This document shows, one piece after another, positions 516-33,500 of a stretch of DNA of 64,000 nucleotides. The position numbers and the translations under genes were made by a program. The stretch's first letter is position 1, and each line of letters starts with the position of its first letter. Source of the stretch: Candidatus Omnitrophota bacterium (GTDB taxonomy: Bacteria; Omnitrophota; Gorgyraeia; Duberdicusellales; 4484-171); assembly GCA_021735655.1 (NCBI GenBank), contig JAIPGM010000001.1, positions 128,001-192,000 on the forward strand, in the 5' to 3' direction. The notes beneath the pieces are model-generated. The model saw nothing but the letters and a program-made list of their open reading frames with translations, did not search any database and was not told the DNA's origin.

Positions 516-3500
516 CCGCTTGATAATGGAAAATCTTTATCGAGACGTAGCTTTGGTTTTATGGTGACCGCTTTGGGAGTGGGGTCATTTTTGACTGTTT
601 GTTCTAAGTCCTCTGATTTGAAACCGGAAGGCAATCTCATTGGGACTGGACTCACAGTAGGATTAACTTTCGCTCCTGGATTAGGAAGAAATATTGGGGC
701 ATATGAGGAGACAGTATGGACTGATCAGGATGTTGAATTTTTATGCCAAGAAGCGAAATTGATCAGAAAATTATGGAATGTTCCTTTTGTTTTATTCTCT
801 GTTTATACTCCTCCGATTGCCGGTAGCAATTACGCTCAAAGTTATCGATGGATTAAGCAGATGCATGAAGCTGGAGTTCGTCTTTTGCCACATATCTCAA
901 ACTATGATGGTCGCTATCTTCCTTCACCAATCGATATTAATGCTTGGGGTATTTCTGGTAGGGAAAAGAACCTATACAAAGATTTTATTAGGGGTTTGTA
1001 TCATGAGTTTAGCTTACGCAATGAAGAGGGTATTTTTTCTGAAACTATTGTTGGTTGGAATGTTTTTAACGAATATGATTATTTAGCTGTAAATAATCCT
1101 AAATGGTTTGCCAGAACGGGCGAGATTGAGGGATTATTGCAGGGTCTGGATGAAGCTGGGATAGTTGATAATCAAGAAAGAACAAGGGTAATACACGGGC
1201 ATGTTATCGATAATATCCTTTTAGCTACAGAGGAAACAACTCGAGGCATTATTGGAGTCTATCAAGACCTAGGTCTTGATCCTAAGCCGATATATACAGT
1301 TTGGGCTGGATTGCCGACAACTGAACAGGTTGCTAAAGTTCCTTCTTTGACTGGTTGGTCATTTAATCGTTATGATAAACCAGGCCTGTTAGAATCTTTA
1401 GAAAATGCTGCTCAGATAGTTGGTGGTAAAGAAATAAATATCCATGAGATCGGGGAGAGTTCTCATGATGGAGAGGATGTTCAAGCGATAGAGCTGGCTA
1501 GAACATTAAATGAGATAGTTGGGGCAAGAGCAAAATTTCCGAATTTGCGTCACTTTATGTTTATGAGCGCTAACGATAATCACTGGAAACCGGAGCTAGA
1601 AAGCACAACAGCAGGATACCGAAGATTTGATAGACAAGGAACTCCTTTCTATGGTCAACATTGGGGATTGTTTGCGACAATATTTGATGATGATGGCAAT
1701 GCCATAGCAGTTAGGCCGAAGAAAGCTGTCGGTGCTTTAAGTGTAGAAATTAGTAAGCTGGCTAATGCAAATAAAGCTGGTCAGCCACTTGATAATGGCC
1801 GGGATAGCTCAGCATTAGGCTCAATTACTACTCGGATTAATGTTTCAGCCAATAACCATTCAGTACAATTACAGGGACATCAACATTTAGTGGTCATTGC
1901 TCCTTTCGAAGATTTAAATCAACAGGACAGAGCTACTTTAGATGAACTTCTTGAAACCAAACTACCAATTGGTGACTATGTATTTATCGGCGAAGGAACT
2001 TTTGGTCTGTTAATGGTTGCTAAGATGGCCCTGTTAAAAAATAGCGATATCCGCGATAGTCAGCTAGCCGAACATTTAGGAAATGTCATTGAACTGGCTA
2101 GCTTGATGAATCAAGGGCTTAGCTCAACCGGCTTAAACTTAGGTGAGCCTATAGCCGAGCATCTTAATCGAGTGGTTGAATATTTTCCTTTAACTAATAA
2201 TCAGCGGCTAATAGCCCTTATTCGTAATTTAGTGATAATGCATTATGGGGAACCAGTAATGTTTTTTACTCAGTTTGCTCAAGATCCCGGTCGCTTCCGA
2301 GGAGTTTATCTATCAACCCTTGCAACCAGTCCGGAGATCATCAACCAGATGGAAATACAATATCAGAGGCAAGTACCGCTTAATAACGGAAAAGATACCG
2401 CAAAATATGTTTCAACTAAAGCAGTAATCGTACTTGGTGTATCTGGTTCAGGAAAAACTACCTTTATTGATAATTTGCTTGATGATCGGCACGACCGTTT
2501 TATTTTCCCGCGACTTACTACTACCCGAAAACCACGCAGTGGAGAAACTGCTGATCGTTATCGAGTTTTTGTTAGCCAAGAATTATTTGATTCAAAAGAT
2601 CGGGCCGATCAAATGTTAATGGTAAGAAGGGGCCGTCATGGCGGCTATGCTTATGGGTTAGATAGAGGTAATTTGGATAGGTGCTGCGCCACCGGTAAAG
2701 CATTACTTTTTGATACAACTTCAATCGCTGGGGTAGAGCGAATAAGAGAAATTTTTCCTCAGGCTGAGGTAATCACGGTTATACCTAAATCATTCGATAG
2801 GCTCAAAATTTTAAGCGATGAGCAAATTAAACGTATTCTTGAGTCGCGAATGAAGACAAGACGCATGAGTAGGGTTGATACTGAAAAACGCCTTCAGGAG
2901 GCTGTAAATGAGCTTAAAAGATTTCCTGAGCTTAAACCAGAAGTGGTTGTTGTGAATGATTCAATTGATGACTTAGATGAAAATATGACTAGATTTAATC
3001 AGGCAGCCGTGGAGTTAGTTTCTAAAAATCAGCCGTTAGATAACGGAGTCGATGAAGCGCATTGGCGACACAATCTTGACTTAAAAGGTTTTACTGAATT
3101 TTCTGATGAATATATTGATTTTCTTAAGAGAGTTGATGATCGAGAGGCTAATGATGCCTTTTGGCAACCGATCGAAAGATTTAATCAAAGATTAAAAAGC
3201 AATAAAGCTTTAGCTAGAAAACTTTTAGATTTATCGCAGATAATGCTTGATCAGGAAGTTTCAGCTGCTGAGGCTTTAATTGAGGCCTTAGCGCAAGTTG
3301 ATAATCGTAATGATTCAGAAGTTGCCTTTGAACAGGTAATTGAACTAGCGGCAGTTTTCTTAAGAAGAAATTTTGACCCGAGGGCTTCGCTCATGCATGG
3401 AGTAGTGGCTATAGCCAGTGCGGCTAAATCAGCAACTGATTTAGAAAGTTGTTTGGCTCTTGCCTTGAACATAGCCGAAGATGCTTCTTGGGATTATCCA

Positions 3501-6500
3501 CAAATAAATTTTGCAATCCAGTTTGATATTCCTTTGATTGCTTTAGAAACTAATGATCCAGAGGTTTTAGCTACTCAGTTAGAGTTTTTAGTCAGCCGTC
3601 AAGGATATTCGCAAGCTCGAGCTTATGCCCGGACCCATTGGATGTATAATTTTAGAAGAAAAAATAGTTTTCGCACTACTGATTGTTACGAAGTTGGCCC
3701 AGATGGTCCAAATTGGAAAAAAGGTTATGTTCGCAGAGGATTAGTAGAATTAATTGCTTATAAAAGATTTATTAAAGCTATAGCTAGAGCACAAGAACAA
3801 GGATTAGGCATTGAATCTCGTATAGCTACTAAAGAAAAACAAGTTTATCGTGGTCTGGTTAGGGCTGAAACTCACAGTGATTCAGGCACCTATTATACTT
3901 GGGAGCAAGATTTAATAGTAGCCGTTTGCCCAGTATTTTTAAAAGAGACAGTAGTTTCTAAAACTGATCTGACCGGTCAATTTTTCCCCGGCTTATTAAG
4001 AGTCGAAAATGATCAAGATATTAGCTTATTAGATTGGCATGTTCAGCGTGTTGTTGGTCAATTCCAAAGTTGGGTTACACATAGGCATAGAAATTTTGAT
4101 CAATGGCCACGTTGTCGACGCGATAATTTATTGCTTGAAGCTTACTTACAGCACCAGATTTATGATACCTATAAAAAATTTGCCAGTATTTGGGCTCGGG
4201 CTTATCAAGAAGCATTCATTCCGCAAAAATATCCTAAGGGGAGTCAAAATGATAATCCAGTATATTTAGCTGCAGTTGAAGCAATTGCTTGGTTAGATCA
4301 GGTTGGTGGAGTTGCCAACGAGCAACGTTTGGCCAAGCTGGATGAGCTAGACGATAAACATCAATTAGGGAGATATCGAATATTACTCCAGAAAGCTTTG
4401 CTTGAACCTCAGACTACAGGAGTCTCGCAAGTAACTCAAAAAGTTATCGGAGAGGAAGGTATTTCTGGCAAACCTTTAGATAACGGGAGAGTAAATAAAG
4501 AAGAATTAGCGGTTACAGCAGTTAAAAGAGGGAACACCTCACCGTGGCTGGCGGGTCCCCTCTCTGCTGTAGCCCCTATATATATAGGTAAACAATCGCT
4601 ACCTTTGGATAATGGTAAGTCAATTCAAGAACAATTCATTGAAGATGTAATTGTTTTTTGGAAAGTTTGGGATAAACAATATCCTAGAGATATTGAATCT
4701 AGCATTTGCGTACTCGAAGGCGTAAAAGCTTTGAAAGCCAAAGGTTATATAGTCTATTCTGGCTCAGAGCATCAATTGAATATGGCAATTGCTGGTTTAT
4801 GGAGAAATGTTTCTGAAGATGATAAGTTTGCAATAAAAGAAGCTGTACGTTTATTGGCTGAAAATGTTAGACAACATGCTGACGATAGCGGAAGATTGAT
4901 AGCCTTTTTTGATCGTGAAGATGATGTGCTTTATTTAGCTATGGTTGATGTTGGTCCGGGATTTTTCCGTGATGATGAAGGAAGACCGGTTATTCGGAGA
5001 AAAGATGATCGGTTTGAACAACGTCCGGATTCTACCGGCAGAGGGGTTGGTTTAAAGTGGGTTTCAGATCAGGTAGATGATTTACAAATCCATACGGGTG
5101 GGCATGTTAGCCGACAGCCTAAACCAACAATTGAGTCCGATTCAAGGATAGAAGATCTTAAAGGAACTTTTGTTTTTACGAAAATAAATTTAGCCAGTCA
5201 AGCCAGGGAGCCTTTAGATAATGGTTATGGAGTTTATCAAGGCAGGAGACTATATCTAGCTGCTGATCCGGTTCTAAGTGGAGTTAAAAGTATTCGGCGC
5301 GTGAATTTATCAGGTCTAACCACCAAGAGACAAAAACACACTTTATTCACTAGACGAAAAATTCTCGATTTAGTGAGTGTCCATGCTTTAGCGGCGGCCC
5401 ATGGTTATTCTTGGTTAAATGATATAAATAATAGTTATGCTAAAAACCAAGCTGATGGTGAGGTTACTTATTGGTTTGAGGTTTATTATGCTATGCTTTC
5501 CTGGTTAAAGGGAGAAATTTATAATGCTGAAGGAACTCGCGATGAGGCACCTAGTCTTTATGTCGGCCAACACGTTGGGGCTGGATTTCAAAGTGATTTT
5601 CCAGAAAGAGAAGAAGCGAATGTAGCTATCGGAATTGATCCTTTAGAGGTAACTAACGGAGTAGTTTCAGCAAAATTTCTTGGTAGTACTGCTCCGGCAG
5701 TATACGCACCACGTGGTGGGATTATGAAAATAACCGATTTAGCTTATCTTTGGGCTTTATCGGTTGGTCCGGCCGCCGGAAATTGCGATTTAAATTTAAA
5801 CTACAGCGTTAGAAAAAATATGACTAATCTAGCAGCTAGTTTAGGTAAGAAAACAAGTCAGCTCAGAGGGGTAATGTTATTCAGAGAAAGGCATTCACGG
5901 GTTCCTTTGTTGCAATTGGTTGAAAGCGGAATGCAGATAGATGAAGGTGATTCAGAACTTAGAGAATTCTTAAATGAGGCCAAACGAATCGAGGATAAAG
6001 AAAAACAATGTCAGAAGCCAAGCCTGCAAGATTTTGATAGTTTGAAGCAGACTTACAAAGCTTTTGATAGCAAGGTTAAGGCAACTGGGGTTTATCAAAG
6101 CGGGAACCTTACCTTTATTGCTGACGGGAACCTTATGCCAGCTTTAGTGGCTTTAAAGAGAGGCTCGGCAGATTTTATTTTTGACTCAGGGGGAACTTCC
6201 GAAGGAATTATGGCTGCGGCTAATGTAAGGGCAATTGGTGGAAAAATGAGCGCCCGGATTGTGCCTTATCAGGCAATGGCTGAAGGAAAGCTTCAGGCAA
6301 ACTTAGTTAAAGATAAAGATAAATTTTTAGAAAATGAACTAGCTGAGCTAGCGAGATATGGTTTTTATCCTAAAACTTCAAGAAGAAAATTGCAGCGAGG
6401 GCAATATCGTCTTAATCATGTTTTTGATGCTACAGATTTAGTCAGTGCTGAAGAAGCAGTTTTCTTGGCAGCTCACATTAAAGATAGTCCTTGGGACAGC

Positions 6501-9500
6501 AGATTGAAGGGAGTAAGATTCGACCGTTCGAGTGGTTATTTAGTCGTTGATGTTGTGGTTAGTACGACTGCGGGTGAAGTTTCAGTTTATCGGGTAACTA
6601 TGAATACAAAAGTTTCAGACGTAGAATCAAAATACGATGCGTTATATAAAGTGCGAGGATTGTCATTTAGTAGAATTTTAGACATATTTGATGGTCGTAG
6701 TCAAGCTCAGCAATTAGCTACTGATTACTATGATTTAGCTAAGGCTCTTGGAATGTTGGGTTTGTTTGAAGATGCTATTGATACATTTAGGTTTTCCGAA
6801 AATTTAAGAAGCAGTACTTATTCTTTTAGATGTCGCGCTGCTCAATCTCATTTCTTGGGGATGAAAATGATTCTAGAAGGTCAAGCAGGCCAAAACGCTA
6901 ACGAAATTGCTGCTAAACATTTTGAAGATTCCTTAGAGAGGAGTCGAAAGAGCCGAGACCCACAGCTAAGAACTAGAGAAAGGCTTATTGACCTTTATAA
7001 ATTTCTTGGTGAAACTGCAGTGAAGAAGGATGAACATCAGGATGCTGAACGTTGGTTTACTTTAGCTTTAAGAAGAGACCCAACCAACAAAGAATTGCTA
7101 GATAAGCTTAATCAAATACAAGTTTTAACTAACCAGCCGCTTGATAACGGCAAAGCCTCCCTAGAAGACCAAGCAGCTAGACAGCCTCTTGATAATGGCA
7201 AGCCTACGATTTTTTCAATTTCACCACAACTTCAGGGCACTCCTTTAGGTGAACGGTTGACGCAGCTTAATACTCTTTATCAGGAAAAAGGTACTAACGA
7301 ACAAGGCGCTAGGGCTGTAGTTGAGGCAGTTTTAGTTGAGCCGGAAATAAAACTTGAAGTCTCCCAAAGAATAAGACAGGCTGATCGCTTGGAAGAGACT
7401 CAAGGTTTTTCAGTATCAAAAACTTGGGCTGATCGTCTAAAGGATGAAGTTTTGAGCCGTTCAGTTGAAAAGTTAGTTGACCGGGAGATTTTCATATTTC
7501 AGATGGAGTATGAGTTGTCGGTGGGATTCTTGCAGGCTTTTTATGATTATCAGATTAGTTTAATGCGACAATATCGTAAGGCTGAGCTTGAAGCTGCTGA
7601 TAGCTTGGATCAGCAAACCGCTCTCGAAGCTGAAATAAGAAGAGATGCTACTCACAATACTTCCCAATTTGCTAAATTGCTTATGGCTGGTGGACTAGGA
7701 AGCTTTAAGCCGGATTTAGTCCGCGGCTGGTATCGAATTATTAAAGAATACCGTAGTTTAGCGGCTGCCCGAAATCAAATTCATGTTATGGGCATATTGT
7801 ACTCAAGTGCAATCAAGGGACAGCAGGAAAATCGAGGCTTGATGCAACTTAAGGGTCCAGCTCAGATAGCTGATAGTGATATTATCGAAACAGTTATCAT
7901 CAATCGAGCCAACCCTCAAAATGGTATGCTTGAATTAGTCGATACTTTTGAAGGGCCTGTTCCTGAATTTGGTATTGGTCAGTTAACCATTGAGTTATAT
8001 CGTAACCCACATTCTGAATTACAGGAATATTGGCTATATTGTCCGTCTCAGGTGGTTCAGGATAAATACGACGGGACTAGTGAAGTTGTTGAATGGTTGG
8101 AAAACGGAAGAGTCGTAGTTAGGCAAGCTCAAGTTTTCAATGAAGCTTATCCGGGAGAAACCTCTGATTATTGGCGGGCAGTTCAATCTTTAGTTTATCG
8201 CCGAGTTTGTTTAGAATTCATTCGTCGCGGTCAAGAGAATCGAAGGAATCATGAAAAGAAGCGAAAACCGCGCTGGGGAACTTATTTTGTCGGTAAAAAA
8301 TTACTTTTTTCAACTAGCGAAGTTAACACTACTTTAGTCATTCCTCAAGTTATCGAAGCTCAATACGGCCAGGTAGAAGATAGTCGGGGAAAGAGGGCAA
8401 AAAGAGTTATTCGCGGTGATAATTTTGCCAGATATTCTGGTTTTCGCGACGTAGTGGTTCATCATTATAACCATACGATTGTTCCAGCCGGCATGCCTTA
8501 CTATCCGCAGGATGCTGAAAATGACTTTTTTACTGAATTAAGCATTGCTGAACGATTCCGTCCGGCTATCCATGACGGAAAAATTGATTTAGTAAAAATA
8601 ACTGGTCAGGTCAGCGATGTTATCACTGGCTGCTCAACCATGCATACCCGGATTTTACGTGAGGAAATATTTGCTGAGTTTGCCGAAAAGGTAGTTGAGG
8701 ATCCTTTATTTGGTAATAGTGAAGGTTCAGATCTTGAGCGTTGGCAGGGAAGAAGAATCCAGACCACGGTTGCCCATTATCGAGATCAATTAGGGGTAAC
8801 CGGAAGCCATCAAGAGTTTTTCGCGGCTTTAGGCAAAGTTTCCGACGGACAACCAAGGGTCAAGCGAGACTTCATTGCAAGTATTTTACGTGCTAAACAT
8901 AAACAAAAAGAATTATTTGTCCGAAAGCTATTTGATGGTACTTTTGGCGATCTGGGAGTAACGGAAGCGGAGTTTAAAGCTGCCGGAAAATCTATCTTAG
9001 ATATGCCATTTTTTACTTTTGTCCGCCGTTTTGTTGATTATAAATGCCCCAATCTTATCATTGATATGCTGTTTAATAAAGAATATCGCGATAGAATTGT
9101 TGCCGCTAACGCCGTAATTTTAATCGGTGGTCGCCGCTTTAGTTGGTTTTTTGAAAAACAGCGTGAACGGTTACGTCAATTAATAAGACAGGATCCGAGA
9201 ATGAGATTTCATGTTTTATTTATTGAGGAACATAATATACATACCTCTCCGATAATGCAGCAGGGCACTGATTTTGGCGGAATGCTTTCCTGGGAAGGAA
9301 AAGAAGCCGGCCCAACTAGTTTTGGTAATGCTCAACAAAATGCTTCGCCGACTATTGGAACCTTAGATGGGGTTATCCCAGAACGTTTGAGGCCGATTGT
9401 GCGTGGCCAACAGGGAGAAATCATTAGTGGAACCGGATATGTTGTTGAATACTCACAGGAGCGTAAAGGTGGAGTAAGAATTCCGGATATTAATTCGTTA

Positions 9501-12500
9501 GTGCTTCAAATTGAACAAGCCAGCAGAGACTACGCCGATAAATTAGTTTATGGTCAAATTGCCGTAAATGCTTTAGCTATGGGCATGACCCAAGGCGATA
9601 TTGACAATCAGGCCAAGGGCTTAATTGCAGTTTGGGGGAACTTATTAGAGCAAGCAAGGCCAGCGGCTGTACCTTTAGATAATGGAAAAGTATCTAAGGC
9701 ATCCATAGGTAATAGAAATTTTGGCCAAAAATTATTTAATTTTTTAAAATGGTTTATTGCTCCAAAAAGTCCTAAAATGCTTCAGTTTCTTACTGAGGCA
9801 ATTGTAAATACTACTGGTTTGTCAGCCGATATTACTCAAAAGTTAGAAGAAATAAGAAGGCAGATCGAACAAGCTGAAGATAAGAAAGAGCCTTTAGACA
9901 ATGGTCGGGATAAATTAAGCCCTAGAATATCAAAATTGCTTGCACAAGGAACTGAAGATCCTCAAGTGCAATATCAATTACTAGAGATTATTCGCGCCCA
10001 ACAGCAACCAGTAGTCGGGATGATGGATAATTACCATTTAAATGGTCAAAGGGTTCGCTTTGCGCCTGAGGAAAGTTTAGCTGTAGTCGCAGAATTTGAT
10101 CGTGGTAGTTTTAGAAGAGCATTCAGTCCAAAATTAAGGACGATGATTATTGAAACTCATCCCGATGATTTAATCATTCATGCCGGTGCTACGGCAAATA
10201 TGTTTGTTAGTGAAACTAGGGGAATGATAACTGAGCTTATTCCGCAATATCCGGGATACCGCAATAATATGCCAATTTTTGTTACAGCAGTTCCTGATCC
10301 AGCCGGAGTAACTGATAATTTTGCTTTTAATTTTTTCCAAGGCAAATTAACTTCTTTGGAGGCGGCAAAAAGAGAAGTCCGGGCCCAGGAAGCGATCTTA
10401 AATGCTGGTTTTATTGGTTGGAATCAGACTGGCAATGCCAGTGAAAGGCACATTAATCTTGATTTAAGATTAAGCTTGATTAAAGCAGTCAGAAGGCCGG
10501 ATGGAAGCCTTGATTCTTATCGTAGTGTTTTTCAGAGATTAACTAAAAGTGAACTTGAAAAAATTGACGCTGTTGTAAGGGAGAATGCGGCTGATCAATA
10601 TTTTATGGTCCATCCGTTTAGCAATCATCCACACCATCGGGTTGTAACTCATGCCTTTTTAGAAGCGATTTACACTCACAATCCGCAAGCAACTATATAT
10701 TTTTGGGCTAATCAAGAAGAACACCAACAGTTAATGACCCAGGCTAATGTATTTTTTGTTTTTAGTGAGGGCATGGAGAATTGGAAAGGGTTAATTATTT
10801 TTAACGGAAACCATTCGCAAAATGAACGCCGAGGCGGAAATGGTGAATATTATTGTGATGCTGCTCGGAGTATGGATTTAGCTACCTGGGAAAATTTACA
10901 AGAAAGACTTGCTCGAGAGGAAACTAGTTCGGTAAATTTAAATAGTTTACCGCTTTGGCGACCGCATGCAGAAAGATTTGTAAAGGTAAGGATTGAGCCA
11001 GTCGGTCAAGATGTCCTGAGCACTCCTTTGGATAATGGGAAATCAACTAAGCAGCCAGAGAAAGAGGTAGTTTCTGATTCCCAAAACGATTTTTCTTTAG
11101 AGCAACTGAAAGCGCTTACGGTTGGTAGCCCTAATCTTTCTTTCGGGGTAGGTATTTTAGCTCGTCATCAAGAGGTGGATTTAATTATTCAGGCTTTTGG
11201 TAAGAGAATAATCAAGCGCGGTGCTTTTTACCAGACAAGACCTTGGGAGGAAACCTTAAAAACCGATTTAGCTTCACCTAACGCAGCTAAAGTAGATTTA
11301 GCCATTAAAACATTAGCCAGTTTAGGCGGAGATTACGCGGCCAGAGCTAGGCGCTTTGAACAAGATATAACCGTAATTGAAGTCGACCTGCCAACCCATT
11401 TTCTTTTATACGGCCAGGATTTAACCGGCGAGATTTATTATCAGCTTACTCATATTGGTCTTGAGCGAAGAATAATTTATCTTCCAAGTAAATATCTAGA
11501 GGATGCAAGTGGACCAGAGTTTGTAGCTACTATTTTTAACCACGATCAAAGCGAGCTTGAGGAGTTCATTCCTTTTTTATTAAGTGGCCGAAATATCACC
11601 GATCAAATGGTTGAGCAGGCTCATCAACGGGCCATGCAAGACGATCCTTTTGGTGTTTACCCCCAGGTCGATGACTTGCTTTCTGATATGCAGGCTTATG
11701 ATGATATGTTTACCCAATCGATGGTTGTAGCTCAAATTGCTGCCGTAGATTCAGCTGTTACTACAAAGAATCGTCAGCTATTAGATGCTTTAGCCTCCCG
11801 CACGCCAAGTGGGCCAGAAGCCTTAAAGGCTAAAGGCCTTTTATTTGAACTAGCCAACCTTGAAACTAAAATTGGTTGTTTGTATGAGGCATTAGGCCAA
11901 AGAAAAAGTGCAATCAGTCATTATCGTAGCGGCGTAGCCGCATTGTCCAGAGTCTCAAAAACAACTATAATTGATACTGGTTTGTTGCCGCTTCAATTAC
12001 AGGTAAGAATGCTTTACCTCTATGCTCGCGAAGGCATGTTTGGCCGTCTTCGAAGTGGTTTTCGTAAATTTTCCCAAGTTAAAATTGGTCGCCAAGCTGA
12101 GGCTTCTGAGGTTGAGCTTTTTGAATGGTATATGGATAGCAATTTTGTGCCGGTAAGAAGAGCTGTGGTTGGAATCCTGCGGCATCACATTACTTGTGGG
12201 CATAACAACTACCCTAAAGATCAGGTAATGACTACTGTTAGATATATTGAACAGTGTCAATATATTCCTTCGGATATAACCCCACGTCTTAAACCAGCTT
12301 ATCTTCAAATTAGAAACACTCCAAGCTTAGCTAATGTTTTTTCAGCCGCCGAATATTTTAGGAGACATAAAGTTCCCGGCTGGGATAAGGTTTTAGCTAA
12401 AACCTTAGGCGGTAATGGCCAGATGGAGGAAGAATATTTGGGTGAATTTGTTGAAGCTAAAGCAGCTGAAGATCAAGTTTGTTATTCGCGGGTAATCGAG

Positions 12501-15500
12501 CTTAGCCTTGAGGGCCACGGTCCAGAGATAGATTTTGTACTTGAAGTTGATCGGGCAAAGTATCATCGTAACAATCAAGGGCAATATGGTAATTTAGATG
12601 AGGGAATTTATCTTGGTGAATCCAAGACATTTAATCGACAATTTAACTTAGATTTGGTTACCGAACATACAATTGATGATAAACAAAGCAAATATCGTTT
12701 AGTGGCCGCAAGGTTAAATAAGCTTCCCGATCCAGTTTTTAACGGCCGCATGAAGGGTATTGTTTTTGCTATGGGGGGAAGCTCGGTTACGGCAGCGGGA
12801 GTTCTAGAGTTTAGGTTAAGACAAAGAGAAGTGGATGAGGGATTAGAAACTTTGAGCTTAGTTGAATATGTAGCTTACATCCCGGATACTATTGATGCTG
12901 ACGAAGAGATAACTTTAAGTGTTAAGGAGGAAATTTATATTATTAAATGGGTAAGAGAGTTAGTTGAGCGGGGAGTAATTGAAGAAAATGAGGTTACCCG
13001 CGTTGAGCGTGTATTTATGGAAATAGCTTCAACTAGCAGCCGTTATGTATTACAAAGTATAGTTTGTGCAAAGTTAAGAGAAAAAACCGGGGAAGGTGAT
13101 ACTTCTTCAGCCAAGCGTCAGTCAGAACAAATTTGGCAAGAAATTATAGCTGAGCTAGAGGCTGAAGCTTTTCCAAATCGAAAACCACTTGATAACGGCC
13201 GCGATGGTCAAGCTGATTTAGCTCGTCAACAGTTAGCTGAAAGTTTGAGAGGGCGCTTGACCGGATTGCTAGATTCTGGTCTTAATCCGGAAAATAGCCT
13301 ACTTGTAACTCATGTTGGTCGACCGAATAAGGCTGGCACGCTTAGGGGTTTGGGTTTACGAGTTTACGAGATGGTTATTCAAGGAGTCAATAAACTTTAT
13401 TATGACCGACGGACTGTAAGAACCATCCCTTTATTTTCTAATAGTTTAGATTGTCCTTATCCTGGTGGTTATCATTCCCAGGGTGGAATGCTTACACCGG
13501 AGGCTAGGCAGGATATTGTTAGCCGGGGAGATGTTTTTATTCTAAGCGGAGGTGAGCTTGAAATATGCTTGCAGATGACTTTTAGCGAATTAATCGATGC
13601 TTTAAATCAAGCTGGAAGAACTACGGTGATATTTGTTCCGCTTGAAGCAACTAGTAGATTTATAAATTTAGAGTCGGCAACCGGCTATGCTGATTATTTA
13701 AAAAGCCGAGCGATAAGCTATGAAGAGTATGATTTTACTAAAAACGAGGTAACTCTAGCTCAACCGGCTACGCCACAGGTATTATTAGTTTGGACTAAGA
13801 CCGCTCAGGAAACTCTTTATTGGTTAGATTTCATAGCTAGGCATCAAAGACTTGTTGCTGAGAAACTTATTGAATCTTTGGGCTCAACTGAGGCAAATGT
13901 ACGTAAAGATGCCGCCGCTAGAATAATTACTATTGCTAAATTAATTGGTCACAACCAAGAAGATAATATATTTGGTCGTCATCCTTTAGATTGGCTTTAT
14001 GGTCATGATGACCATCGCCAGACTACGCCGCAAGAACGCAGGCTTTTATCGGAAGTTTCTTGGTTTCCTTCTGATGCTGTTCATCGAGATGAGGAGCAAG
14101 TACTTTTAACCAATCGCCGAAGAGTAAAAAGCAGAGTAACTGAAGTAAGAAAATCTTTAAGAAATAGGATTTTGTTTGACGTTAAGGCAAAATTGGAATT
14201 ATTAAAACAGCGTTTAGCTGATTCTGAAATTCAGGCTGCAGTAGATTTGGTAAGCTTTGGCTTTGATTCAAGTTTACCGGATCAAGGATCACGCAAGATA
14301 GCTGTTCTTAGAAAATTAGAGAGAAATCTCCAAGAGCTAACTACCCAGATAGAAAGGGCTAAAGCTTCTGGTAGTATTGGAGTGATAATTGTGCCTTTAA
14401 TTGATGAGGCTTTAAGTAGTCTACGGCGGCACGTAAATACGATTAGACATTGGTCGGATTATAAAAAAGGAAGCTATGTGCTTAGGCAGTTAGTTGATTG
14501 GATGGTTCGAAAGCATTTTGAGCCGCAGCATGCTCAATATCGGCAGATAAAATCAGCTAAAGTTTTGGGACGAGTCGATAACGGAGATGAAAAATTTTGG
14601 CAACTTCCGATTTGGCCGTTGGCTGATAACGGTGAGGTTGATTTAGGCTTAACTGGCTGGATGCTTACTTCGCGACAACGGGCTCCGCCAGAATATTTTC
14701 AAAGAAGAAAAGTTTCCCTAGCCGAATTAGCTGGTTTAAAACCAATCCAACTTACCTTATTTAATCTTGATGATTTTACTGGTTCTGGGCAACCCTTAGA
14801 TAATGGCCGAGTGCCTCTCGATAATGGTAAACCTTTATTAGAAAATAGAGATAAACCTAAAGAAACAGGCAGCCACCTTAGAGTAATGCTGGGTTTTCTA
14901 AGTCCGATCAGAGATGAAACCAAAATAGATGAACCCTTGAGTATTTCCGTGTTAGCTGGAGTATTAAGAGATGAGTTTAAGGGCACGGTAGACGTTGCCA
15001 CGGTCCACCCTCTTGTTGAAAAGGGAGGCCTTGAAGGGGTAAAGGAAAGGATAAGAAAAGAACAGCCGGACATCTTAGGATTATCTTTGTTTTTTGGTAG
15101 TTTAGATTATTTAAGAGAATTAATGGCTTATATACGTACTTTGCCAGAAGAAGTTAGGCCTTTAGTGATACTTGGCAATGTGTTGGCTAAATATAATTTA
15201 GGATTGATTTTAAAGGAATTTCCAGAAGTTGGAATTTGTACTGGAGAAGGAGAAAATACTATACGAGATTTTGTGCGTTATTACCGGGGGGAGATGGGTC
15301 TTTTGCAGATTACCAATTTTGCCTATATACATCAAGGGGTACCGAGAGTAAATTTACCTCAACAACGCACTGATTTGTCTGATATTGGAATGCCTCAGCG
15401 GGATATTTTTTCTCACGTCATCAGAACCGGCGGGGTCGTATTTTTAGAAACAAGCCGTTCTTGTTCGCATAATTGTGCAATGTGTAGTCGTAAGACTTAT

Positions 15501-18500
15501 TTGGAAGGAGCAGAATTTTCTCAAGTAGGTTGGCGTGGACGTCCGCTTGAGGATGTCATAAGAGATATGGCTGATGTAAGTCGTCAAGGAGCCAGATTTG
15601 TTAATTTCGTTGATGAAGATATTTTTGGTGGAGGCCTTGTACGGGTTATGGAGCTTGCCCAGAGAATTATTTTTGCTAAGGCACGAGGCGAGATTCATCC
15701 CGATTTAACCTTTGGCAGTTCAGCTAGCGTGAGATCAATCTATGTCCAACCAGAAGGTGATACTAAAGCTAGGGCTCAGATTGAAGCCGATAACGAGCTG
15801 AGGATAGAGGCACTTACAAGATTAAAACAAGCTGGCTTAGTGGTTTTATTTACAGGTATCGAGTCAGGTTCTCCTACTCAGCTTGCTCGATACGGAAAAG
15901 ATGCCACAGTATTTGAAAATGAAATGGCCTTACGGATAATCGATGAAGCAGGCATACACAATGTTCCTGGTTTTATTATGTTTGATCAAAAGGTCACAAT
16001 CGAGGAGCTGCGAGAGGATATTGCATTTTTACGAAGAACCGGGATGGATAAAAAAATTACCTATCCGCTTAGAACTTACTATCCTTTAAGGGGTGCTATG
16101 TGCACTGATCAACTGGTGGTAGATGGTCTTGTGGATGCAGAGCGATATAATGCAAGTCAGTTAGCCTATGAATACGTTTATGAGGATCAAGATGCTGCTA
16201 CTTTGTTGTGGGCTTTAAAATCTTGGGAAAAAAGCCAAATGCTATTCTTTTGGATTATTAAGATAATTTTTCGTTCTTCACGGTTTGGTGAGCTATCACC
16301 GGAGACACAAGCATTATTCAAAGAGGTTATGGCTGATCAAACTGTTATTTTACTTGATTATTTGGAAGATTTAGTTAATTGCTCATCAAGTTCTCAATAC
16401 CCAGAGATTGATCTTAGATATAGTGATAGATTAATAAATACCATGCTGTCTATTTTAGGCTTAATTAACGAAGGTCAGCTATCTATAGATGGCTCACATC
16501 TTTCGGAAGTTATTTACGGAAGCATAACCAGGGAAATCGTCCGTGTGCATCTTTTACATTTGCCATTTACTTTAAATGATATTTTTGAAATGGTAAAAGT
16601 AAGGTTTGGTGCTGAACTTAGTCTGCCTATGCTCAAGAGAGCTTTAAGCAGCTTTGTGAACGAGGGCGCTATGGAGTATTGTGAAGGCAGGTATTCATTA
16701 ACAGCTAAATTTTGGGATTTAAAAGGAATGCCTTATTATGATTTGCCAAGACCATACCGAGGAGGCGAATCTAACCTTGCTCAAGCGAGTTTACCAGTTC
16801 CACATCTTGATGTATTTAGGCAAAGAGCAGGCATTTTAGAGTTAGAGGTAGCTTATAACCAAGTCAGAGTTTTTGGGGAAGTATTATACGCTGCAGTTGG
16901 TTTTATCCTTTTTGCTATAGTTGGTGTTTTGATTATCCATACTTTGGCTGGAGGGTTTGTGGTTGGCTTTTTCGGATTAGTTATATTTGTTTATTTTTAT
17001 TCCAAATCGTTTCCTAAATCAAAATATAAAATAGTTGAGCAAGGGTTGAAAATGTTTAGTGGTCAAAGAATTGGTAGCCAAGATTTCATAAAACTATCTT
17101 TGGTGTTTAGGGACCTTTTAGCTGATGATTGCGATAATATAATAATACAACTTCTTGCTCGATCGGGAATCGAAGCAGCTAATGAGCTTGCCCAGAATAG
17201 GTACCTAGAGGAAACCTTGGGCGTGCAGTCTCCCCTTGATAATGGTAAAGATCCCTTTCTTACAGTCGATATTAGCCAATTGCCAGGAATGCTGTTAAAT
17301 AGAAATTATCAGAAAGCAATTGCAATATTTGAGAGCTTAGACGTTTTTAAAGACGGTGACGCTTTGAGAGACTTGCTTTCTGGCTTCAGGGAAATGTATG
17401 AAAATAATTACGATTTCAGGTCACGTCTTCTAGAATGTTTCATCCATTTATATGAAACCCAGCGCCAGCAGTGGTCTAAGGCCGAAAGAACCTTAAGGGT
17501 AATCTATGAACAGCAGACAGCTGAGGAAGATTTATCTTTGCTGTGGGTGAGGAAAATTGCCGTTGATATTTGGTCTGAGATTGCAAGTAGAGAGATAAAA
17601 CTTTCTGATGAACAAATGGTACCGGTTGAACAGGTAGGAGTTGATCTACAGGTAACTGAGGTCTGTTGCTATGAGTGTCCTTGGTGTTTATATCATCACA
17701 CGCCAAAAGGCCCGGCCCGGAGAAACCTTCACCGTTTAAGCGAAGCCGAGGCCGTAGACATAGTCAGTCAGTTTATGGAGGCAGAAACCTTTTCTTTGGC
17801 GCCGTTTAGTTTCACCGGCGGGGAACCTTCAATGAATCGGAAAGTTTTATTTGCTGCTCTTGAGGCAGCTACCCGACGTCAGCAAGCTGGATTTATTAAT
17901 GTATTTAGTAATGGTATTTGGGCTCGAGACGTAGAGGCTGCTGAGCGTATGCTAAACGCTCTTGCTGAGAAAGCAATCATCAGACTGGTTATCAATAGTG
18001 GGCTTTTGCCCGAAGGCCTTGAGCGGATTAAGCATATTGTTGACGCTTACGGCAGATTGGATAGTTCAATACAATACCGCATAGAACTTGGTATAGCCGT
18101 TCCTTTATTGGGCGATGAGATTATAACTTATCTTGAATCAGTGCGGCAAGCGCTTAAGGGAAAATTTCTTATTCAGCCGTCTAATGGCGCTATTACTGCC
18201 GTAGACATGTTTGAAATGTATCATTTAACAAATTGTAAGGTTGGTATTCAATTGTCTAATAGTCGTATTCTCATTATACATCCTGAATCGATTGCTATAA
18301 GTCATGCTAATAAGGGTCGCCTTGCTTTAAGAGAAAAGCAGATTGAAGCTTACCGGCTTAACCGCCCGGTTTGGTCGTCATGGCAAAGCAATGGGTCGCG
18401 CTATGTGCAATTTGTGGCGCAAAGTGACCTTTGGGTTTTAGCTAATCCTTTTTTCTGGGGCTATGGCAATCCTCGGCAGTGGAGTTTTGATTTTATGAAT

Positions 18501-21500
18501 GTTAGTCAGCTACATGAAGCCTATCAGCGTGATCCGCTTTGGCAGATGCTTTCAACTGTGCCAGCCGAGGAGATTATAGAACAAATGCGGCAGCTTTTTG
18601 TCACAGTCCCTCAGGGCGTTGATCGTTGGTTATCTGGTCTTCATGCGGTCCATCCGATTGCTAGCAGTTTTGCCGCTGAACTTTTACAGGATTCGCGCGT
18701 GCGTTATTGGCTAAGAAGATGGCATAGTGGTGATTCAGTTAATGAGCCATATCCGGAGTTATTGATGCCGGAATTAAGTCAAAAACAAAATTCACCTAAA
18801 TCAATTCCTTTGGATAACGGCCGAGTGCCTCTTGATAATGGTAAACCGTTCATGCAAAAGTTTAAACCTTCAGAAACTCTAGGCTATTCAGTGATTAACG
18901 GTCCTAGACATAGAGTGATGATTATTAATGTTTTGCCGCAAGATAAACAAGCTTCTTTAGAAACTCAAACTCAGAGCATAATTTCACAAGTAGATTCAGC
19001 CTTAGCTAGAGAGGGTTTTAATAATAGTGATGTGGTTAAACAGGATATGTTTTTACGTGATCCGAGCCAAAGACCCGAGGTTAAAGAAATGCTAGGTAAT
19101 TATTATGGAAGGGCGCCTCCGGCAACCAGTTTTATTCATCAGCCGCCGATAACCGGTGAGCTAGCTGCTACTGAATTGATTGTCATTAAGGGGGAGGGGG
19201 TCCAAGTCTACCGAGTAAATAAATATGCAACCTTAATTAATGCTGACGGACTTTGGATGCTTTATGTGGCTGGAATTGAACCGGATGCTAATTTAACTGA
19301 TACCTATCAGCAGGCCTATAATACTTTTTTAAAGTTACAGACTGTTTTAGAAGAAGTTAGGCTTGGCGCGGTAAGCTTTAAATTTGAAGATGTAATTAGA
19401 ACCTGGCTTTTTGAACGTGAGATAGTTGGTTTTGATGATCAAGAAAAAACTCAAGAGAGATATCAAAAGCTTAATCAAGCCCGACGCGTTTTATTTGATA
19501 CGGCTGATTCTGGATCAGGGGTTATTTTTGGCCGTCGTCTGCATTGTCCATCTTCTTGGCTTCTTTCCTGGCGAACGAGGATTGCTTTTTGGTTTTTAAA
19601 GTTTTCTTTTACTCATCGAATAAAGAAATTCGAAAAAATATTATTCAAATTAGCCCGAGTCAGGCCTCCGGCTTCAACCGGAATCGGTGCTTTGCCGGAA
19701 TTTCAAGCCCAAGGAATAAACGTTGCCATTGGTCCGGCTTTTGTTTTTGAAGCTTTAGCTTTGTTCGCTGAAAGTAATCGAGGCGATGTTTTAATTCAGT
19801 TTATTGAAAACCCCGAACAAACTCCGGCTCATGCTTATTCCAAAAAAGTATTACCCAAGGGAGAAAAGAAAAAGAAAAAAGCTTCCCCGGCTTTTAGCCG
19901 TGGTATGGCTGTATTTATGGATTACATTTGGATAATCATTTCTGGAACAGCTTCAGTTAAAGGTGAAAAGGTAGTCTCTGTTGGTGATGTAAGAGGTCAA
20001 GCTGAGACCACGATTGATAATTTAAGATTAGTAGTTGGTCAGGCTGGAGCCCAGTTAAAAGATATACCGCAATTAAGAGTGTATATCAAGAATTGGCAGG
20101 ATTATCAGACTGTAAGGTCGGTAGTTGAAAAGCATTTTCCCGATACTCCGGCCCTATATCTTTTGGCTGATGTCTGTCGGCCAGAGTGGTTAGTTGAAAT
20201 TGAAGCCATGGCTTTTATTCCTCGAGAAGAAGGGGTTTCTAAGCCTTTAGACAATGGTAAAAATAGAATTCGGCAAGGTGAGATCTGGTCTCCTCACCGT
20301 GGCTGGCGGGATCCAGCTCCCTTGCCGGATTATATATCTGTTCCGCTCGACAATGGCAAAAGAACTCTAGATTCATTGCCAACCAGACTCAGGGTTTTCT
20401 TAAGACTTAATAATATTGATCCAGCTAAAACTTATTTATTTGCCATGAGCGGCGGTGATTGTGCCGGGCCAAATTCAGCTTATTATGGTGCAGTTAGAGA
20501 GGCTGATAAATATGGTTATAAAGTATTAGGGGTGTTGAATGGTTTTGAAGGGTTAGGGGCTAATCCGGATTTATTCGTTGATCAACTTATTTATATTACT
20601 TCCGAAGGCATTGAGCGATTAAAAGGAATGCCGAGTATTCATGTTGGGTCTTCTCGGGCTAAATTTAAGGATAAACGCGAAAATATTTTAGTTAATTGCG
20701 CTGCTTTTGCCGGAGTAATTTTTGTTGTTGGTGATGACCATTCTAAGCAAACCGGCGAGCTAGCTGAAAGCGGCATAGCAACTATAGCTATTCCCAAAAC
20801 TATTGATTATGACTTTTTGGCGGAATCTTTAGGGTCACATAGTGCTATTTCTGAGGCCCGGCGACTTTACCTACGGGCTCATCGCATGGCCCAAGAGGAT
20901 CATTTTGTTCAAGTTATTGAATTTATGGGACGTGATGCTGGCTGGCTAACCTTTTTGGCAGCTCAGCAGGTTGCTGGAGCTAACTTTATTCTTCTCCCGG
21001 AAAAAAGCGCTGGCTTTAAGGATGTTTTAATTAAAGCTTTGTCAGTTATTTTAGAGGAAGGTTATTTGACTATCGCTATGGCTGAAGGTTATAGCTTTAG
21101 AGATTTCCAGGAAAAAGATCGTATCTTTGGAGGGCCGCTGTTTTATAAATTCTTAGATATTATACCGTTTCTTAAGGCTAAATTTTATTCTAAAGGCCAA
21201 ACCGATGTACATGGTAACCCCAAATTATCAGGAATAGCTGAGTACTTGTCTTTAGCTATTCGTTATTTGCCACGCTTGGCCAAGCATGATGCCGATATAA
21301 ATAGGCTTTATCAAGCGATTAAACTTAAGTACCCACATTATTTTGGTACTGACTTGCGTTATAAGGCTAAGGGCGAGGTAATGCAGAATGTTCGTTTATC
21401 GATTTTAGGCTATATTTTAAGAGGCCTTCCTTCAGATGATTACGATACTAGATTGGGAGAGGCTTATGGAAGAGCCGCAGTTAGGTTACTTCAGGCCGGA

Positions 21501-30500: not shown

Positions 30501-33500
30501 TTAGTTTTTGGTAACCGGGGAATATCTGGCAAGGAAGCAGCAATCCTAAAAGCTTTTCCTGAAGCTTTAGTAGTAACCAACGAAGGTGAAGAAGCTATGC
30601 TGGGAATTGTTAAAGGCGACGCCCGAGAGTCAATTCCTAATCTTTGGTATGTTGATCAAAACGGAGAAGCTAAATTTACTTATCCTCAGGTACTTTCGGC
30701 AGCTGATTACGTGGCTCCTTCTAAAAATATTCGCAAGATCAATGAACAGCCGCTTCCTTGGTATCAGGATGTTGGCTTTGTTGAGGGAACTCGTGATTGT
30801 TCAAAAGCTAGTTCGCGGCCTTGCACTTTTTGTGTGCATAGTTGTCGTCGAGCTCAGATACCAAAAAATCAATGGCGCTTGCTTAATGTTGCTGAGACTT
30901 TAAAGAGTATCGAGGCAGAAGTTAATTCCGGTAAAAGTACAATCAACATTGTAGCTGAAGATTTATTGGGTAGCGATCCAAAGCAAGTAGAACTTTTATT
31001 TTCCGGGATTAGGCAACTAAAGCGAAGCGGACGTATACCTAGGACAACTACCTTTTATGCTTCAATTATGACTTATCACATTTATCGTCGGGCTGATTCT
31101 TTATGGAGTAAATTTAAAAAGATATTGCGGCTTATCCGTATGCGCCGCCTCGGGTTTACTACGGTTTTTGTTGGTTTTGAGAGTGGTTCTGATCCTCAAC
31201 TTAAGCGTTACAATAAGGCTGTATCGGCCTTTGAGACTAGAATGGCTATTCGGATATTGCTTTGGCTCGGGTTTCATATTGATGGTGGTTTTATTAATTT
31301 TGACCCTTTAATGAGCCTGGATGATTGCTTGACTAATGTAGCTTTCTTGCGTTTAGCTAAGGTGCCTAAATTATTATTGTTTCCGTTTAATCAGCTAATT
31401 GTATTTCCTAATACCGCTTATGCTAAGTTAGCTGGGAGACGCCAGCCGGAACCAGTTGTTCAAAGGCTACTTAACTGTATAGCTAGAGTTAATCAAGAGA
31501 TACCTTATTTTCAGTTTGAGATATTCTTGCAACGTTTGCGCTTAGCTTATTTTGCCGGGACTGATAAGGCTAGTATTCGAGAATATGAACAAATTCTTTA
31601 TCGTTATGGCAATCTTTGTTTAGATTTTATCGAACAGATTGTAGTAGCTCTAAAGAGAGGCGCAAGCGATTCTGAACTAGAGACTTTAACCGATCAATTC
31701 CTAAATAGACACAGGCAGTTTATTGATAATTTTTATATTTGGGCTCGGGTTAGGGCACCGGAGATGTTTGAGCGAACCATGTATGCGGTTCGGCCGCAAT
31801 CCAGCGAAAGAGCCGGTTATGTGCCGGGTTTTAGTTTTTGCGATCTTGAGCAGTATGGTTCTTTAAATGTTCCTTCTGGCCCTGCGGAAAGTCTGATTGA
31901 TATTGAGCCTTATGTTGACGATCGAATTCCTCAAGAAATACCCTTAGCAGTAGCCCAAGGCCAAGCGGCAATTGAAATCCATTGTGGATTAGTTGTTGAC
32001 ACTAATACTTTACTTGGGCAATGGCGAGCTCAAGGAGCCACAGTTAGTGAGCTTTCAGTAGGGGTGGCCAATCTTAAAGAAAGCTGGTATGTAGTAAATC
32101 GAGAAAGTGGTGTCACCTATGTTTTAAGACGAGTCCAAGGCAAGACTCGCCTTAATCATTATTTGGCGATGTTGAAATATTTGGGTGTGCCGCGTGAAAA
32201 AATATTTGTCCGAGATTTTAAAACTGCTTACCGAACTATTTATCAGAATAATTTAGCTGATTTAGCCGGCAAGCTCACCCAGTGTGTATTTAGTTTTAAT
32301 CTCACTGAACGCTTGGAAGATCTTCAGGCAGTTTATCCGGCAGCAACCGTAAGGGAAGTTCAGGTTGATGGTTTTCATCATGCGGTTATTACCTTTAGCC
32401 GAGATAACCAAATTCTTTTAATTGATCTTAGTGATGCCTACGGAAGTCAAATTGCTCAAGTTCTTGACTTTGTAGTTAGCCCTCTCGAACAAGGTGGCTT
32501 AGCTATAGAAAGAGTTTTATTTTTAGGAGCCTGTGGAGCAGTAGCTGATAATATTGCTTTAAATGATGCAGTTATAATGCAGGGTTTAATTGATGATGAT
32601 CCTCAGGCAGTTGGTTTTCCGGTTAACCAAGTTGACGCTGATCGACTTTTTAGCTATTTAAATTTAAGTTATGAAGATTTTAACGACATGATTCATACAG
32701 TAGGCGCTCGGGGAGCGCATTCTGAAGGTTTATGTTGTCAGACCACTGCTAATCTTGCTGATTGGCAAGCTCGCGGAGCTGATTTTGTTGAAATGGAGCT
32801 ATTGCCTATTATTGAAGTATTAAGAAATTACTGGCATGTTCAGTTGGAAGTAATTCTCCAAGTTACCGATCTTTTAGGCCGTGAGAAAGAATATCAATTG
32901 GGTCAAGGGGTGCCAGCTGCCGCTGAAGCTAGGAGAGCAGCTCGTTTCCGAAAGGCGATTGCTTTATATTTAGTTGGTAATTTAAAGCCAAAAGTTACTG
33001 TAAATGCTAGTCGAAACTTTAGCCTTGACGCTGTTCCTTTGGATAACGGAAAAAGCGAAAAAACTAGTCCAATCGTGCGAGCTCCGCCTTTAGATAATGG
33101 CAAGCAAAGCAAATCTCACCCGGCAGTAATTAGCGAATATGAGGTTTCACGGTTTGTGGCTAAAATAGCTCAAACCCGTCGTCAGGAGATGAGGGTAAAT
33201 ATTCGCTCTAGCTTAGGCCTTGAGTCTTTTATTAGTTTAGTTAAGGGGGAGCGTCTTGAAGCCCTTAGAGAAAAAGTTATAAATTTACATCAATCCGGTG
33301 TTAGGAAGATAGTTTTGATGAACGCTACTGAATCTGGTGGTGGCGTTGCCGAGATGATGCATGATATTGTTTCAGTTATGTGCAGCGCTGGAATGGCTGC
33401 TGAGTGGGTTGTTATGGATGGCCACAGTGCTTTCTTTAATGTAACTGTGCATATTCATGAAGGACTTCAGTCGCCAGCCAAGGAAGATATTTCTTTAGAG

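Follow-up and report, generated by a model that had tools for sequence, protein, structure and literature searches.

A 64,000-nucleotide (nt) window of a Candidatus Omnitrophota contig carries a giant open reading frame (ORF) in which a recurrent motif, PLDNG and its variants, bounds enzyme-sized modules and also brackets segments of only 2–68 amino acids (aa). An earlier note on this DNA had proposed these short segments as candidate released peptides or spacers. Our analysis indicates that they are probably leftovers of a polyprotein, of four kinds, and not a class of functional peptides. In the explanation that we favour, dozens of ordinary enzymes are fused in frame, with PLDNG[KR] replacing the former gene boundaries and acting as a putative processing site that separates the enzymes. 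Three of the short segments house a translated RNA hairpin that must sit within the continuous reading frame, and a motif on each side would allow the meaningless hairpin peptide to be cut away from the neighbouring enzymes. Three others are doubled motifs, probably the end-site of one module beside the start-site of its successor, or else a junction that was duplicated around two inserted modules. One, of 68 aa, is a genuine small domain that in one relative is fused to an enzyme, and the remaining four, hereafter ‘orphans’, would be empty head-to-tail spacers, likely without a function of their own.

The frame runs from position 9 to 63038 of the forward strand and codes for at least 21,009 aa, up to a TGA stop codon at 63036–63038. 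It is open at the left edge of the window, where the S-adenosylmethionine (SAM) motif LEVGTGSGW of a protein-isoaspartate methyltransferase (PCMT) starts at nt 3; because these first residues are the middle of that enzyme, the giant gene extends upstream of the window. The motif P[LF][DN]NG occurs 62 times in the frame (58 PLDNG, 3 PLNNG and 1 PFDNG) and is directly followed by K or R in 54 of these copies; about 0.01 copies would be expected by chance, in a back-of-envelope estimate that uses rough residue frequencies and not the composition of this ORF. Every synonymous position of the 15-nt motif DNA varies among the copies, which argues that the motif is selected as protein and not as DNA. 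The chain is divided by the motifs into 63 modules, and the identifiable ones are ordinary enzymes: PCMT, guanylate kinase, GlpX fructose-bisphosphatase, a glycogen-phosphorylase-like protein, phosphofructokinase (PFK), RidA, TreT, 4-alpha-glucanotransferase (GH77), glycosyltransferases, a sugar transferase, glutamate dehydrogenase (GDH) and a pyridoxal-phosphate-dependent (PLP) decarboxylase, together with two radical SAM proteins and several methyltransferase-like domains.

Homologues of the phosphorylase-like module beside the segment at 7152–7184 are found almost only in metagenome-assembled genomes of Omnitrophota. A scan of one genome per species yielded 49 related loci (L001–L049), up to 60% identical, and 22 kb of each was fetched. 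Most of them are open through the full 22 kb and are therefore pieces of giant ORFs. Each Omnitrophota lineage has its own recurrent short junction motif: [SP][LFI]DNGG in L002, L004, L025 and L034, DNG[ND] in L020 (Candidatus Gygaella obscura), and SSP[VLAI] in L001, L005–L008, L015, L019, L021, L031 and others. The order of the modules is scrambled between lineages, and L001, which at 60% identity comes closest to the window, carries an SSP motif rather than DNG. Examples of spans with recurrent motifs are nt 1726–14176 of L025, nt 359–18056 of L004 and the whole of the fetched L006, L007, L019 and L021.

The motif coincides with the place of a gene end. In free-standing homologues (L026, L030 and L035 from Altarchaeum, and L042), the conserved stretch QAKGL[IL] or QASGLL is followed by the C-terminal end after 9–16 aa; in the window, PLDNG comes 15 aa after this stretch. 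The free-standing proteins thus terminate at about the distance at which the motif stands. In L021 (nt 6453–11850), the phosphorylase-like module is present as an identical tandem duplication, 861 aa each, and the short segments that come after the two copies, ~30 aa each, differ from one another.

Giant proteins of this kind have been described in the same phylum, in which a single ORF exceeding 10,000 aa is tiled with many different enzyme Pfams (Nielsen & Lui 2026, bioRxiv 10.64898/2026.06.07.730766); radical SAM, GT1 and methyltransferase domains are among their domains (bioRxiv 10.64898/2026.06.07.730766). These giants and those of West-Roberts et al. 2023 (bioRxiv 10.1101/2023.11.21.568195) share the tiled multi-enzyme architecture of the window; the difference is that no recurrent junction motif, short inter-motif segment or in-frame hairpin is found in the accessible text of either paper. 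No description of the junction motifs was found in the searchable literature, in which ‘PLDNG’ occurs in no relevant paper.

Eleven inter-motif segments make up the short class, and the coordinates that the earlier note gives are exact (Table 1). They are 2, 2, 2, 11, 12, 23, 24, 28, 38, 38 and 68 aa long; the smallest module after them has 108 aa, which leaves a gap between them and the enzyme-sized modules. Neither their existence nor their number is itself a signal: 11 of the 61 intervals are at most 70 aa long, and a random scatter of 62 sites gives a mean of 12.2 (P = 0.72). The idea that they form an over-represented class was rejected because random site placement yields as many. Intervals of at most 70 aa account for 18% of the total in the window, 19% in SSP-type loci and 10% in DNG-type loci, and relatives of either motif type also contain short segments and near-adjacent double sites, such as SLDNGGEIDNGG in L034, SSPADKSSSPV and SSPGVSSPV in L006, SSPLHASSPV and SSPLPISSPV in L019, and SSPHRTSSPS in L001.

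Table 1 Short inter-motif segments, double linkers and radical SAM modules in the giant frame of the window.
Feature	Position	Strand	Length	Remarks
Segment 6	4488–4601	+	38 aa	Carries hairpin copy A at 4511–4574
Segment 9, KASLEDQAARQ	7152–7184	+	11 aa	PLDNG at 7137–7151 and 7185–7199; orphan, putative polar spacer
Segment 11	9687–9890	+	68 aa	Small protein-level domain; three predicted helices
Double linker PLDNG-RV-PLDNG	14793–14828	+		Dipeptide at 14808–14813; directly upstream of the B12/radical SAM module
Radical SAM modules 16 (B12-binding and radical SAM) and 17 (radical SAM)	14829–18806	+	801 aa and 520 aa	Generic cores
Double linker PLDNG-RV-PLDNG	18807–18842	+		Dipeptide at 18822–18827; directly downstream of the second radical SAM module
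Segment 20	20259–20342	+	28 aa	Carries hairpin copy C at 20267–20331
Segment 33, KSEKTSPIVRAP	33051–33086	+	12 aa	Orphan, putative polar spacer; polar fraction 0.75
Segment 37	36147–36260	+	38 aa	Carries hairpin copy B at 36170–36233; double linker PLDNGRAPLDNG directly after
Double linker PLDNG-RA-PLDNG	36261–36296	+		Dipeptide at 36276–36281
Segment 49, RQTISHFRSGEGQSRTGPTSRNF	47658–47726	+	23 aa	Orphan with a local 10-bp hairpin
Segment 61, RQMPDYFSPVGDVNVTLNSSSEKA	61278–61349	+	24 aa	Orphan, putative polar spacer; no Pfam match

The two 38-aa segments and the 28-aa segment have a 19-nt core in common, CCTCACCGTGGCTGGCGGG, present in three copies against none expected. The earlier note already speaks of copies A, B and C of an element; what is conserved is an RNA and not a peptide, as the core is read as SPWLAG in copies A and B and, one frame over, as HRGWRD in copy C. 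Despite lying 31.7 kb apart, copies A and B share 83% identity over 144 nt. A shorter version of the core, CGTGGCTGG[CT]GG, is present in 35 copies in 795 kb of sequence (the window and its relatives), all on the coding strand, with none on the opposite strand. Its translation uses each of the three frames (SPWLAG, HRGWRD, LSVAGG and FRGWWG), and this accounts for the ‘peptide motifs’ STFRGWWG, PSVAGG and AWLAG that recur in the relatives. All 33 copies in the relatives lie inside the giant open frame, and of the ten loci in which the longest open frame is below 1,300 aa, nine lack the hairpin. A 15-nt version of the core gave at least 120 single matches to viral contigs, on both strands, which were taken as chance and not used.

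The copies fold on the sense strand into a hairpin with covarying stems, organized as an outer stem, a 5′ internal loop, an inner stem and the invariant apical sequence CCGUGGCUGGYGGG. The inner stem has compensatory changes between A and B, and the stems of copy C, whose fold has a z-score of −4.1, show no sequence relationship to those of A and B. On average, 23.5 base pairs enclose the core in real copies, compared with 10.4 in 534 chimeras that combine the 5′ flank of one copy with the 3′ flank of another. Aligning raw copies with MAFFT and RNAalifold recovered only the apical pairs, the internal loops differing in length; copies were trimmed at the outer stem and the consensus was derived from per-sequence folds. 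In the resulting alignment of 23 sequences, 83.1% of cells are paired, against 68.2% after shuffling (0 of 500 shuffles reach the real value) and 43–60% with slid partners, and both partners have changed in 18 of the 28 pairs. In 19 of 24 copies the sense strand folds more stably than the antisense strand, and it contains 60 G–U pairs against 28 on the antisense strand, favouring RNA structure in the mRNA. The hairpin is thus a structured element conserved at the nucleotide level, independent of frame and specific to one strand. It is apparently an undescribed RNA element without an Rfam family: Rfam gave no match at the gathering threshold over the window, and a permissive search around copy A returned only chance-level matches (E = 0.37 and 1.2). 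The window has no tRNA or transfer-messenger RNA (tmRNA).

Several features of its surroundings can be added. The core is repeated in tandem with a 38-nt period in L007 (12250–12363), L015 (6602–6677) and L029 (5863–5976 and 7619–7694); such tandem copies fall in successive frames, three of them (114 nt) restore the frame, and segments A and B are also exactly 114 nt long. In the window, the cores start at 4537, 20292 and 36196, a spacing of 15,755 and 15,904 nt that, with three copies, may be coincidence. A perfect 14-nt palindrome, CCTATATATATAGG, directly follows hairpins A (4575–4588) and B (36234–36247), copy C is followed by TTATATAT (20332–20342), and several copies in relatives have, as judged by eye, U-rich tracts after the outer stem.

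Across lineages, the hairpin is found boxed between junction motifs. Seven of 15 hairpin sites lie in segments of at most 60 aa with a motif on each side, and such segments make up 0.7% of the length. The boxed copies are the three of the window (28–38 aa), one in L020 (33 aa between DNG motifs), one in L006 (56 aa between SSP motifs) and two in L036 (43 and 45 aa), so that boxing is seen both in DNG-type (window and L020) and in SSP-type (L006 and L036) lineages. That motifs flank a translated hairpin on either side, and do so in lineages whose motifs differ, suggests that the motif means ‘cut here’. The position of the motif, its invariance, its wholesale replacement between lineages, its doubled copies and, above all, the boxing of the hairpin lead us to regard it as a putative processing site. 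Self-cleavage at Asn-Gly was considered as a general mechanism and set aside, since Asn is lacking in SSP[VLAI], the motif of L001 (60% identity) and of many other lineages.

Some observations weigh against this reading. The binomial probability of boxing 7 of 15 sites (~5e-12) is partly circular, because the hairpin helps to define the segment, and the other eight sites are not boxed on both sides, several of them lying within 5–46 aa of one junction and most copies outside the boxed ones within 5–50 aa. No close relative of the PLDNG[KR] lineage was found, the best genome match being 60% identical and of the SSP type, and short segments were judged unconserved only at distances at which module order itself is unconserved. 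Finally, no protease or peptidase domain was detected at E ≤ 0.01 across the 21,009 aa. This last point would also suit the main rival explanation, that the motif is a hinge or docking element in one uncleaved, membrane-associated megaprotein, the view of these proteins found in current literature, and that the short segments are simply longer linkers. In agreement with that idea, cleavage motifs are not mentioned in the accessible text of the 2026 survey of Omnitrophota giants, in which the words polyprotein, linker and cleav- are absent (bioRxiv 10.64898/2026.06.07.730766), and the accessible text of West-Roberts et al. 2023 states that the cleavage points of giant proteins are unknown (bioRxiv 10.1101/2023.11.21.568195). 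We nevertheless consider an uncleaved chain unlikely: a plain hinge need not be an invariant stretch of 5–6 residues that switches wholesale (PLDNG[KR], SLDNGG, DNGN, SSPV), the motifs coincide with the ends of free-standing homologues, and motifs that are doubled two residues apart, or that box a hairpin peptide, suit excision and not hinges.

The doubled motifs and the 68-aa segment represent two further kinds of segment in the polyprotein explanation. The two RV double linkers, ~4 kb apart, are 83% identical over 53 nt (14793–14845 and 18807–18859), with 25 of 26 nt identical from CGAGTG, which encodes RV, through the second linker to AAACC. They bracket the two radical SAM modules in the manner of direct repeats. 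The similarity suggests that a junction may have been duplicated around an inserted block of two modules. Three promoter-like matches fall at these linkers (14775–14825 and 18811–18839), with the GATAAT of the linker as second hexamer; they are probably an artefact of the −10-like motif codons GATAAT. Over 1000–20999, neither sigma-70 promoters nor intrinsic terminators are enriched relative to shuffled sequence (38 promoter-like sites, with 44.7 expected, and 13 terminator-like sites, with 16.9 expected). None of the short segments in that interval contains a terminator-like site, and the three promoter-like matches at the linkers are the only ones that coincide with short segments.

The 68-aa segment has a homologue in L004 (nt 2915–3073; 43% identity over 49 aa, E = 1e-8; 4e-26 with jackhmmer), where it forms the C-terminal end of a 271-aa module resembling haloacid dehalogenase (HAD) hydrolases (nt 2270–3079, with the motif DLDGTLY), with no junction motif in between. 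The nucleotides of the two differ freely. AlphaFold2 predicts helices at residues 5–24, 29–43 and 48–66 with modest confidence (predicted local distance difference test score of 69). No match was found among 1.84 billion representative proteins, a database for whose size the query is too short. We conclude from these comparisons that the segment is a real small domain and not a spacer, and its fusion to the HAD-hydrolase-like module in L004 argues that it is portable between module contexts.

The four orphans (11, 12, 23 and 24 aa), by contrast, have no homologue in the 49 related loci (tblastn), no close relative being among these, none among the short segments of 18 related polyprotein loci and none at paralogous junctions of their own ORF; in L025, L004 and L002, the equivalent enzyme module has no counterpart of segment 9 at its N-terminal junction. 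When 37 short segments from 19 sources were compared all against all, no similarity between lineages was seen, and the only matches were the paralogous pair A/B of the window and one pair within L019. The L019 pair (nt 9836–9890 and 12284–12340), with L(Q/E)(P/T)GCL(T/M)RG(I/L)F in common between SSP sites, is the only recurrent short segment that we found besides the hairpin carriers. All short segments, concatenated with their 25-aa flanks, gave no match at E ≤ 0.01 in 5.8 billion proteins, a collection in which giant ORFs seem poorly represented. A degenerate DNA pattern for PLDNG-xx-PLDNG had 0 matches in metagenome contigs, and a protein query spanning 7152–7184 retrieved one distant locus from such contigs, at 35% identity.

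In composition the orphans are 64–83% polar; the polar fraction is 0.73 and 0.67 in the first and last 6 aa of modules, respectively, and 0.53 in module interiors. The orphans therefore look like the head of one module joined to the tail of another with nothing between. As RNA, segments without the core are unstructured (mean fold z-score −0.25; +1.4 for segment 9, +1.4 for segment 33, +1.6 and +0.6 for segment 61). One exception is segment 49, whose minimum free energy has a z-score of −2.5 relative to same-length pieces of the ORF and in which TTCCCACTTCCG..AAG..TGGGGAAGG resembles the canonical TTCCACCTTCCG-TGGCTGG-TGGGGGA; its hairpin may be a decayed copy of the conserved one, a resemblance that is suggestive only. 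The other exception is in L021, where a coreless 28-aa segment (nt 3024–3107) contains a different GC-rich hairpin (GCCGCGGGC...GCCCGCGGGC; z-score −2.2), and other RNA structures may also be housed in short segments. With a motif at the gene-end position, a composition like that of polar module heads and tails and no peptide homologues, the spacer alternative that the earlier note had offered is the one that is supported.

It could still be argued that the orphans are released as small functional peptides outside the class of ribosomally synthesized and post-translationally modified peptides (RiPPs), as regulators of processing order or as small cofactors, in the manner of picornavirus 3B/VPg, flavivirus 2K or the HIV Gag spacer peptides. 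The motif that bounds the enzymes also boxes the orphans, every lineage examined has kept short segments, and the protein-level conservation of the 68-aa segment in a second lineage indicates that short segments can function. Against this stand the missing homologues of the 11–24-aa segments in related loci and at paralogous junctions, their resemblance in composition to junction-proximal tails, and a number that random site placement would produce; we rate such a role as rather improbable. The release of any free peptide would, moreover, hinge on proteolysis at the motif, itself a putative step.

A different origin can be proposed for the hairpin segments, as footprints of a small mobile or recombinogenic DNA element that inserts into linker DNA with target duplication. 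A linker–element–linker arrangement would then arise of itself, and the hairpin would act in module shuffling, as DNA and not as RNA. The scrambled order of modules, the similarity of A and B across the distance that separates them, the 38-nt-period tandem arrays in L007, L015 and L029, and the strict strand specificity combined with structure conservation, as in integron attC sites or REP (repetitive extragenic palindromic) elements, would all fit. However, the linkers flanking each copy differ, by eye, at 3–4 of ~6 synonymous positions, and any two linkers give the impression of differing about as much, which speaks against target duplication in the recent past; the motifs on either side are both kept as protein, and the better folding of the sense strand, with twice the G–U pairs, favours RNA. 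Action as mobile DNA therefore appears doubtful to us, more so than either of the alternatives above, although an origin by insertion is compatible with the polyprotein explanation.

As an RNA, the hairpin could perhaps serve as in-frame ‘operon punctuation’: a conserved signal for processing, termination or stability that divides an mRNA of more than 63 kb, boxed so that its peptide (perhaps with a tmRNA tag at a truncated 3′ end) is removed. We put this forward tentatively. If it is true, boxing across PLDNG[KR], DNG[ND] and SSP[VLAI] would be independent genetic evidence that the motifs are excision sites, and many Omnitrophota would express much of their metabolism as a processed polyprotein.

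The earlier note had further suggested a precursor-plus-maturase arrangement, in which radical SAM enzymes and methyltransferases of the ORF act on the short peptides. Both enzyme classes are indeed encoded in the frame, with several methyltransferase-like modules, but two CxxxCxxC radical SAM modules are present (aa 4941–5741 and 5747–6266) and not the three that had been counted. Pfam recognizes in them only Radical_SAM, B12-binding and a weak Fer4_12, and no SPASM, twitch or RRE domain is detected with Pfam or NCBIfam. Their NCBIfam scores are 16–57 bits against cut-offs of 180–700, and 16–27 bits against cut-offs of 268–650 for RiPP-type models. On the peptide side, Cys is absent from all 11 short segments, no leader/core organization or repeated core is seen, and none of five segments tested matches a precursor family. 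A 38-aa segment and the 23-, 24- and 68-aa segments have no Pfam match below E = 0.01, nor does the 68-aa segment have one in NCBIfam; a scan of the 11-, 23- and 24-aa orphans gave no family match, and the 12-aa orphan is too short to scan. The only segments that directly adjoin the radical SAM modules are dipeptides.

Thus, it is very improbable that the short segments are RiPP precursors that are freed at the linkers and then matured by modules from within the polyprotein: the co-occurrence of the enzyme classes, the two RV double linkers bracketing both radical SAM modules and the weak best NCBIfam matches of module 17 to peptide-modifying families (YydG, 27 bits; HxsC, 24 bits) are outweighed by scores 10- to 30-fold under the curated cut-offs (300 and 268), by the features just listed as lacking, by the conservation of three segments as RNA in different frames with no peptide conservation across lineages, and by the fact that radical SAM domains are common in the sugar-metabolism module set of Omnitrophota giants, according to the accessible text of the survey (bioRxiv 10.64898/2026.06.07.730766). 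Synthetic peptides made from these sequences, and radical SAM assays with them, would probably bring little return.

Whether Omnitrophota giants act as one chain or as many cut enzymes is a question to which the boxed hairpins give a handle. The motif and the segments define exact termini for proteomics, and the hairpins define exact positions for mapping transcript ends. About 40 nt beyond the stop codon of the giant frame, in 63080–64000, a gene of normal size begins (MKAINGFFLVLLLLFQPFL...) that has an apparent signal peptide and resembles a substrate-binding protein, which points to ordinary gene organization downstream.

Known systems offer further comparisons. Clusters of RiPP precursors with radical SAM enzymes (sactipeptides, ranthipeptides, streptide and YydF/YydG) likewise encode short peptides beside radical SAM proteins; the window differs in having no leader/core layout, Cys, SPASM or RRE domain, precursor family match or, among the related loci compared, conservation. 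Multi-copy precursors are cut at fixed sites in yeast alpha-factor, in FMRFamide precursors and in the fungal Kex2-processed ustiloxin/dikaritin peptides. In the window, too, short peptides are enclosed by a short motif of fixed sequence, which here ends in a basic residue; such precursors repeat one core many times, whereas the segments of the window all differ (except the RNA-determined A and B) and are scattered among enzymes. Among intercistronic mRNA hairpins are the RNase III signals of phage T7, with an internal loop between two stems, and the stabilizing hairpins of REP elements and bacterial interspersed mosaic elements (BIMEs). The hairpins of the window resemble them in being strand-specific, conserved in structure and placed at the boundaries of coding units, and their bipartite stem with an asymmetric internal loop may be analogous to the T7 sites in particular; they differ in being in frame and translated, in their invariant apical sequence of ~14 nt and in having no Rfam match.

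The short segments also resemble the spacers and small peptides of viral polyproteins, such as SP1 and SP2 of HIV-1 Gag, picornavirus 3B/VPg, flavivirus 2K, potyvirus 6K1 and 6K2, and coronavirus nsp11. In the viral examples, poorly conserved segments of 10–25 residues lie between two copies of the protease recognition site, where they are by-products or modulators of ordered processing; in the window, too, the short segments are bounded on both sides by the motif that also bounds the enzyme modules. The host here is a bacterium and the products are housekeeping enzymes, with the arrangement known from sequence and cleavage presumed, and three of the segments owe their existence to an RNA element, which to our knowledge is the case for no viral spacer peptide. 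Most likely, the segments are spacer peptides of the polyprotein type in an unusual bacterial setting.

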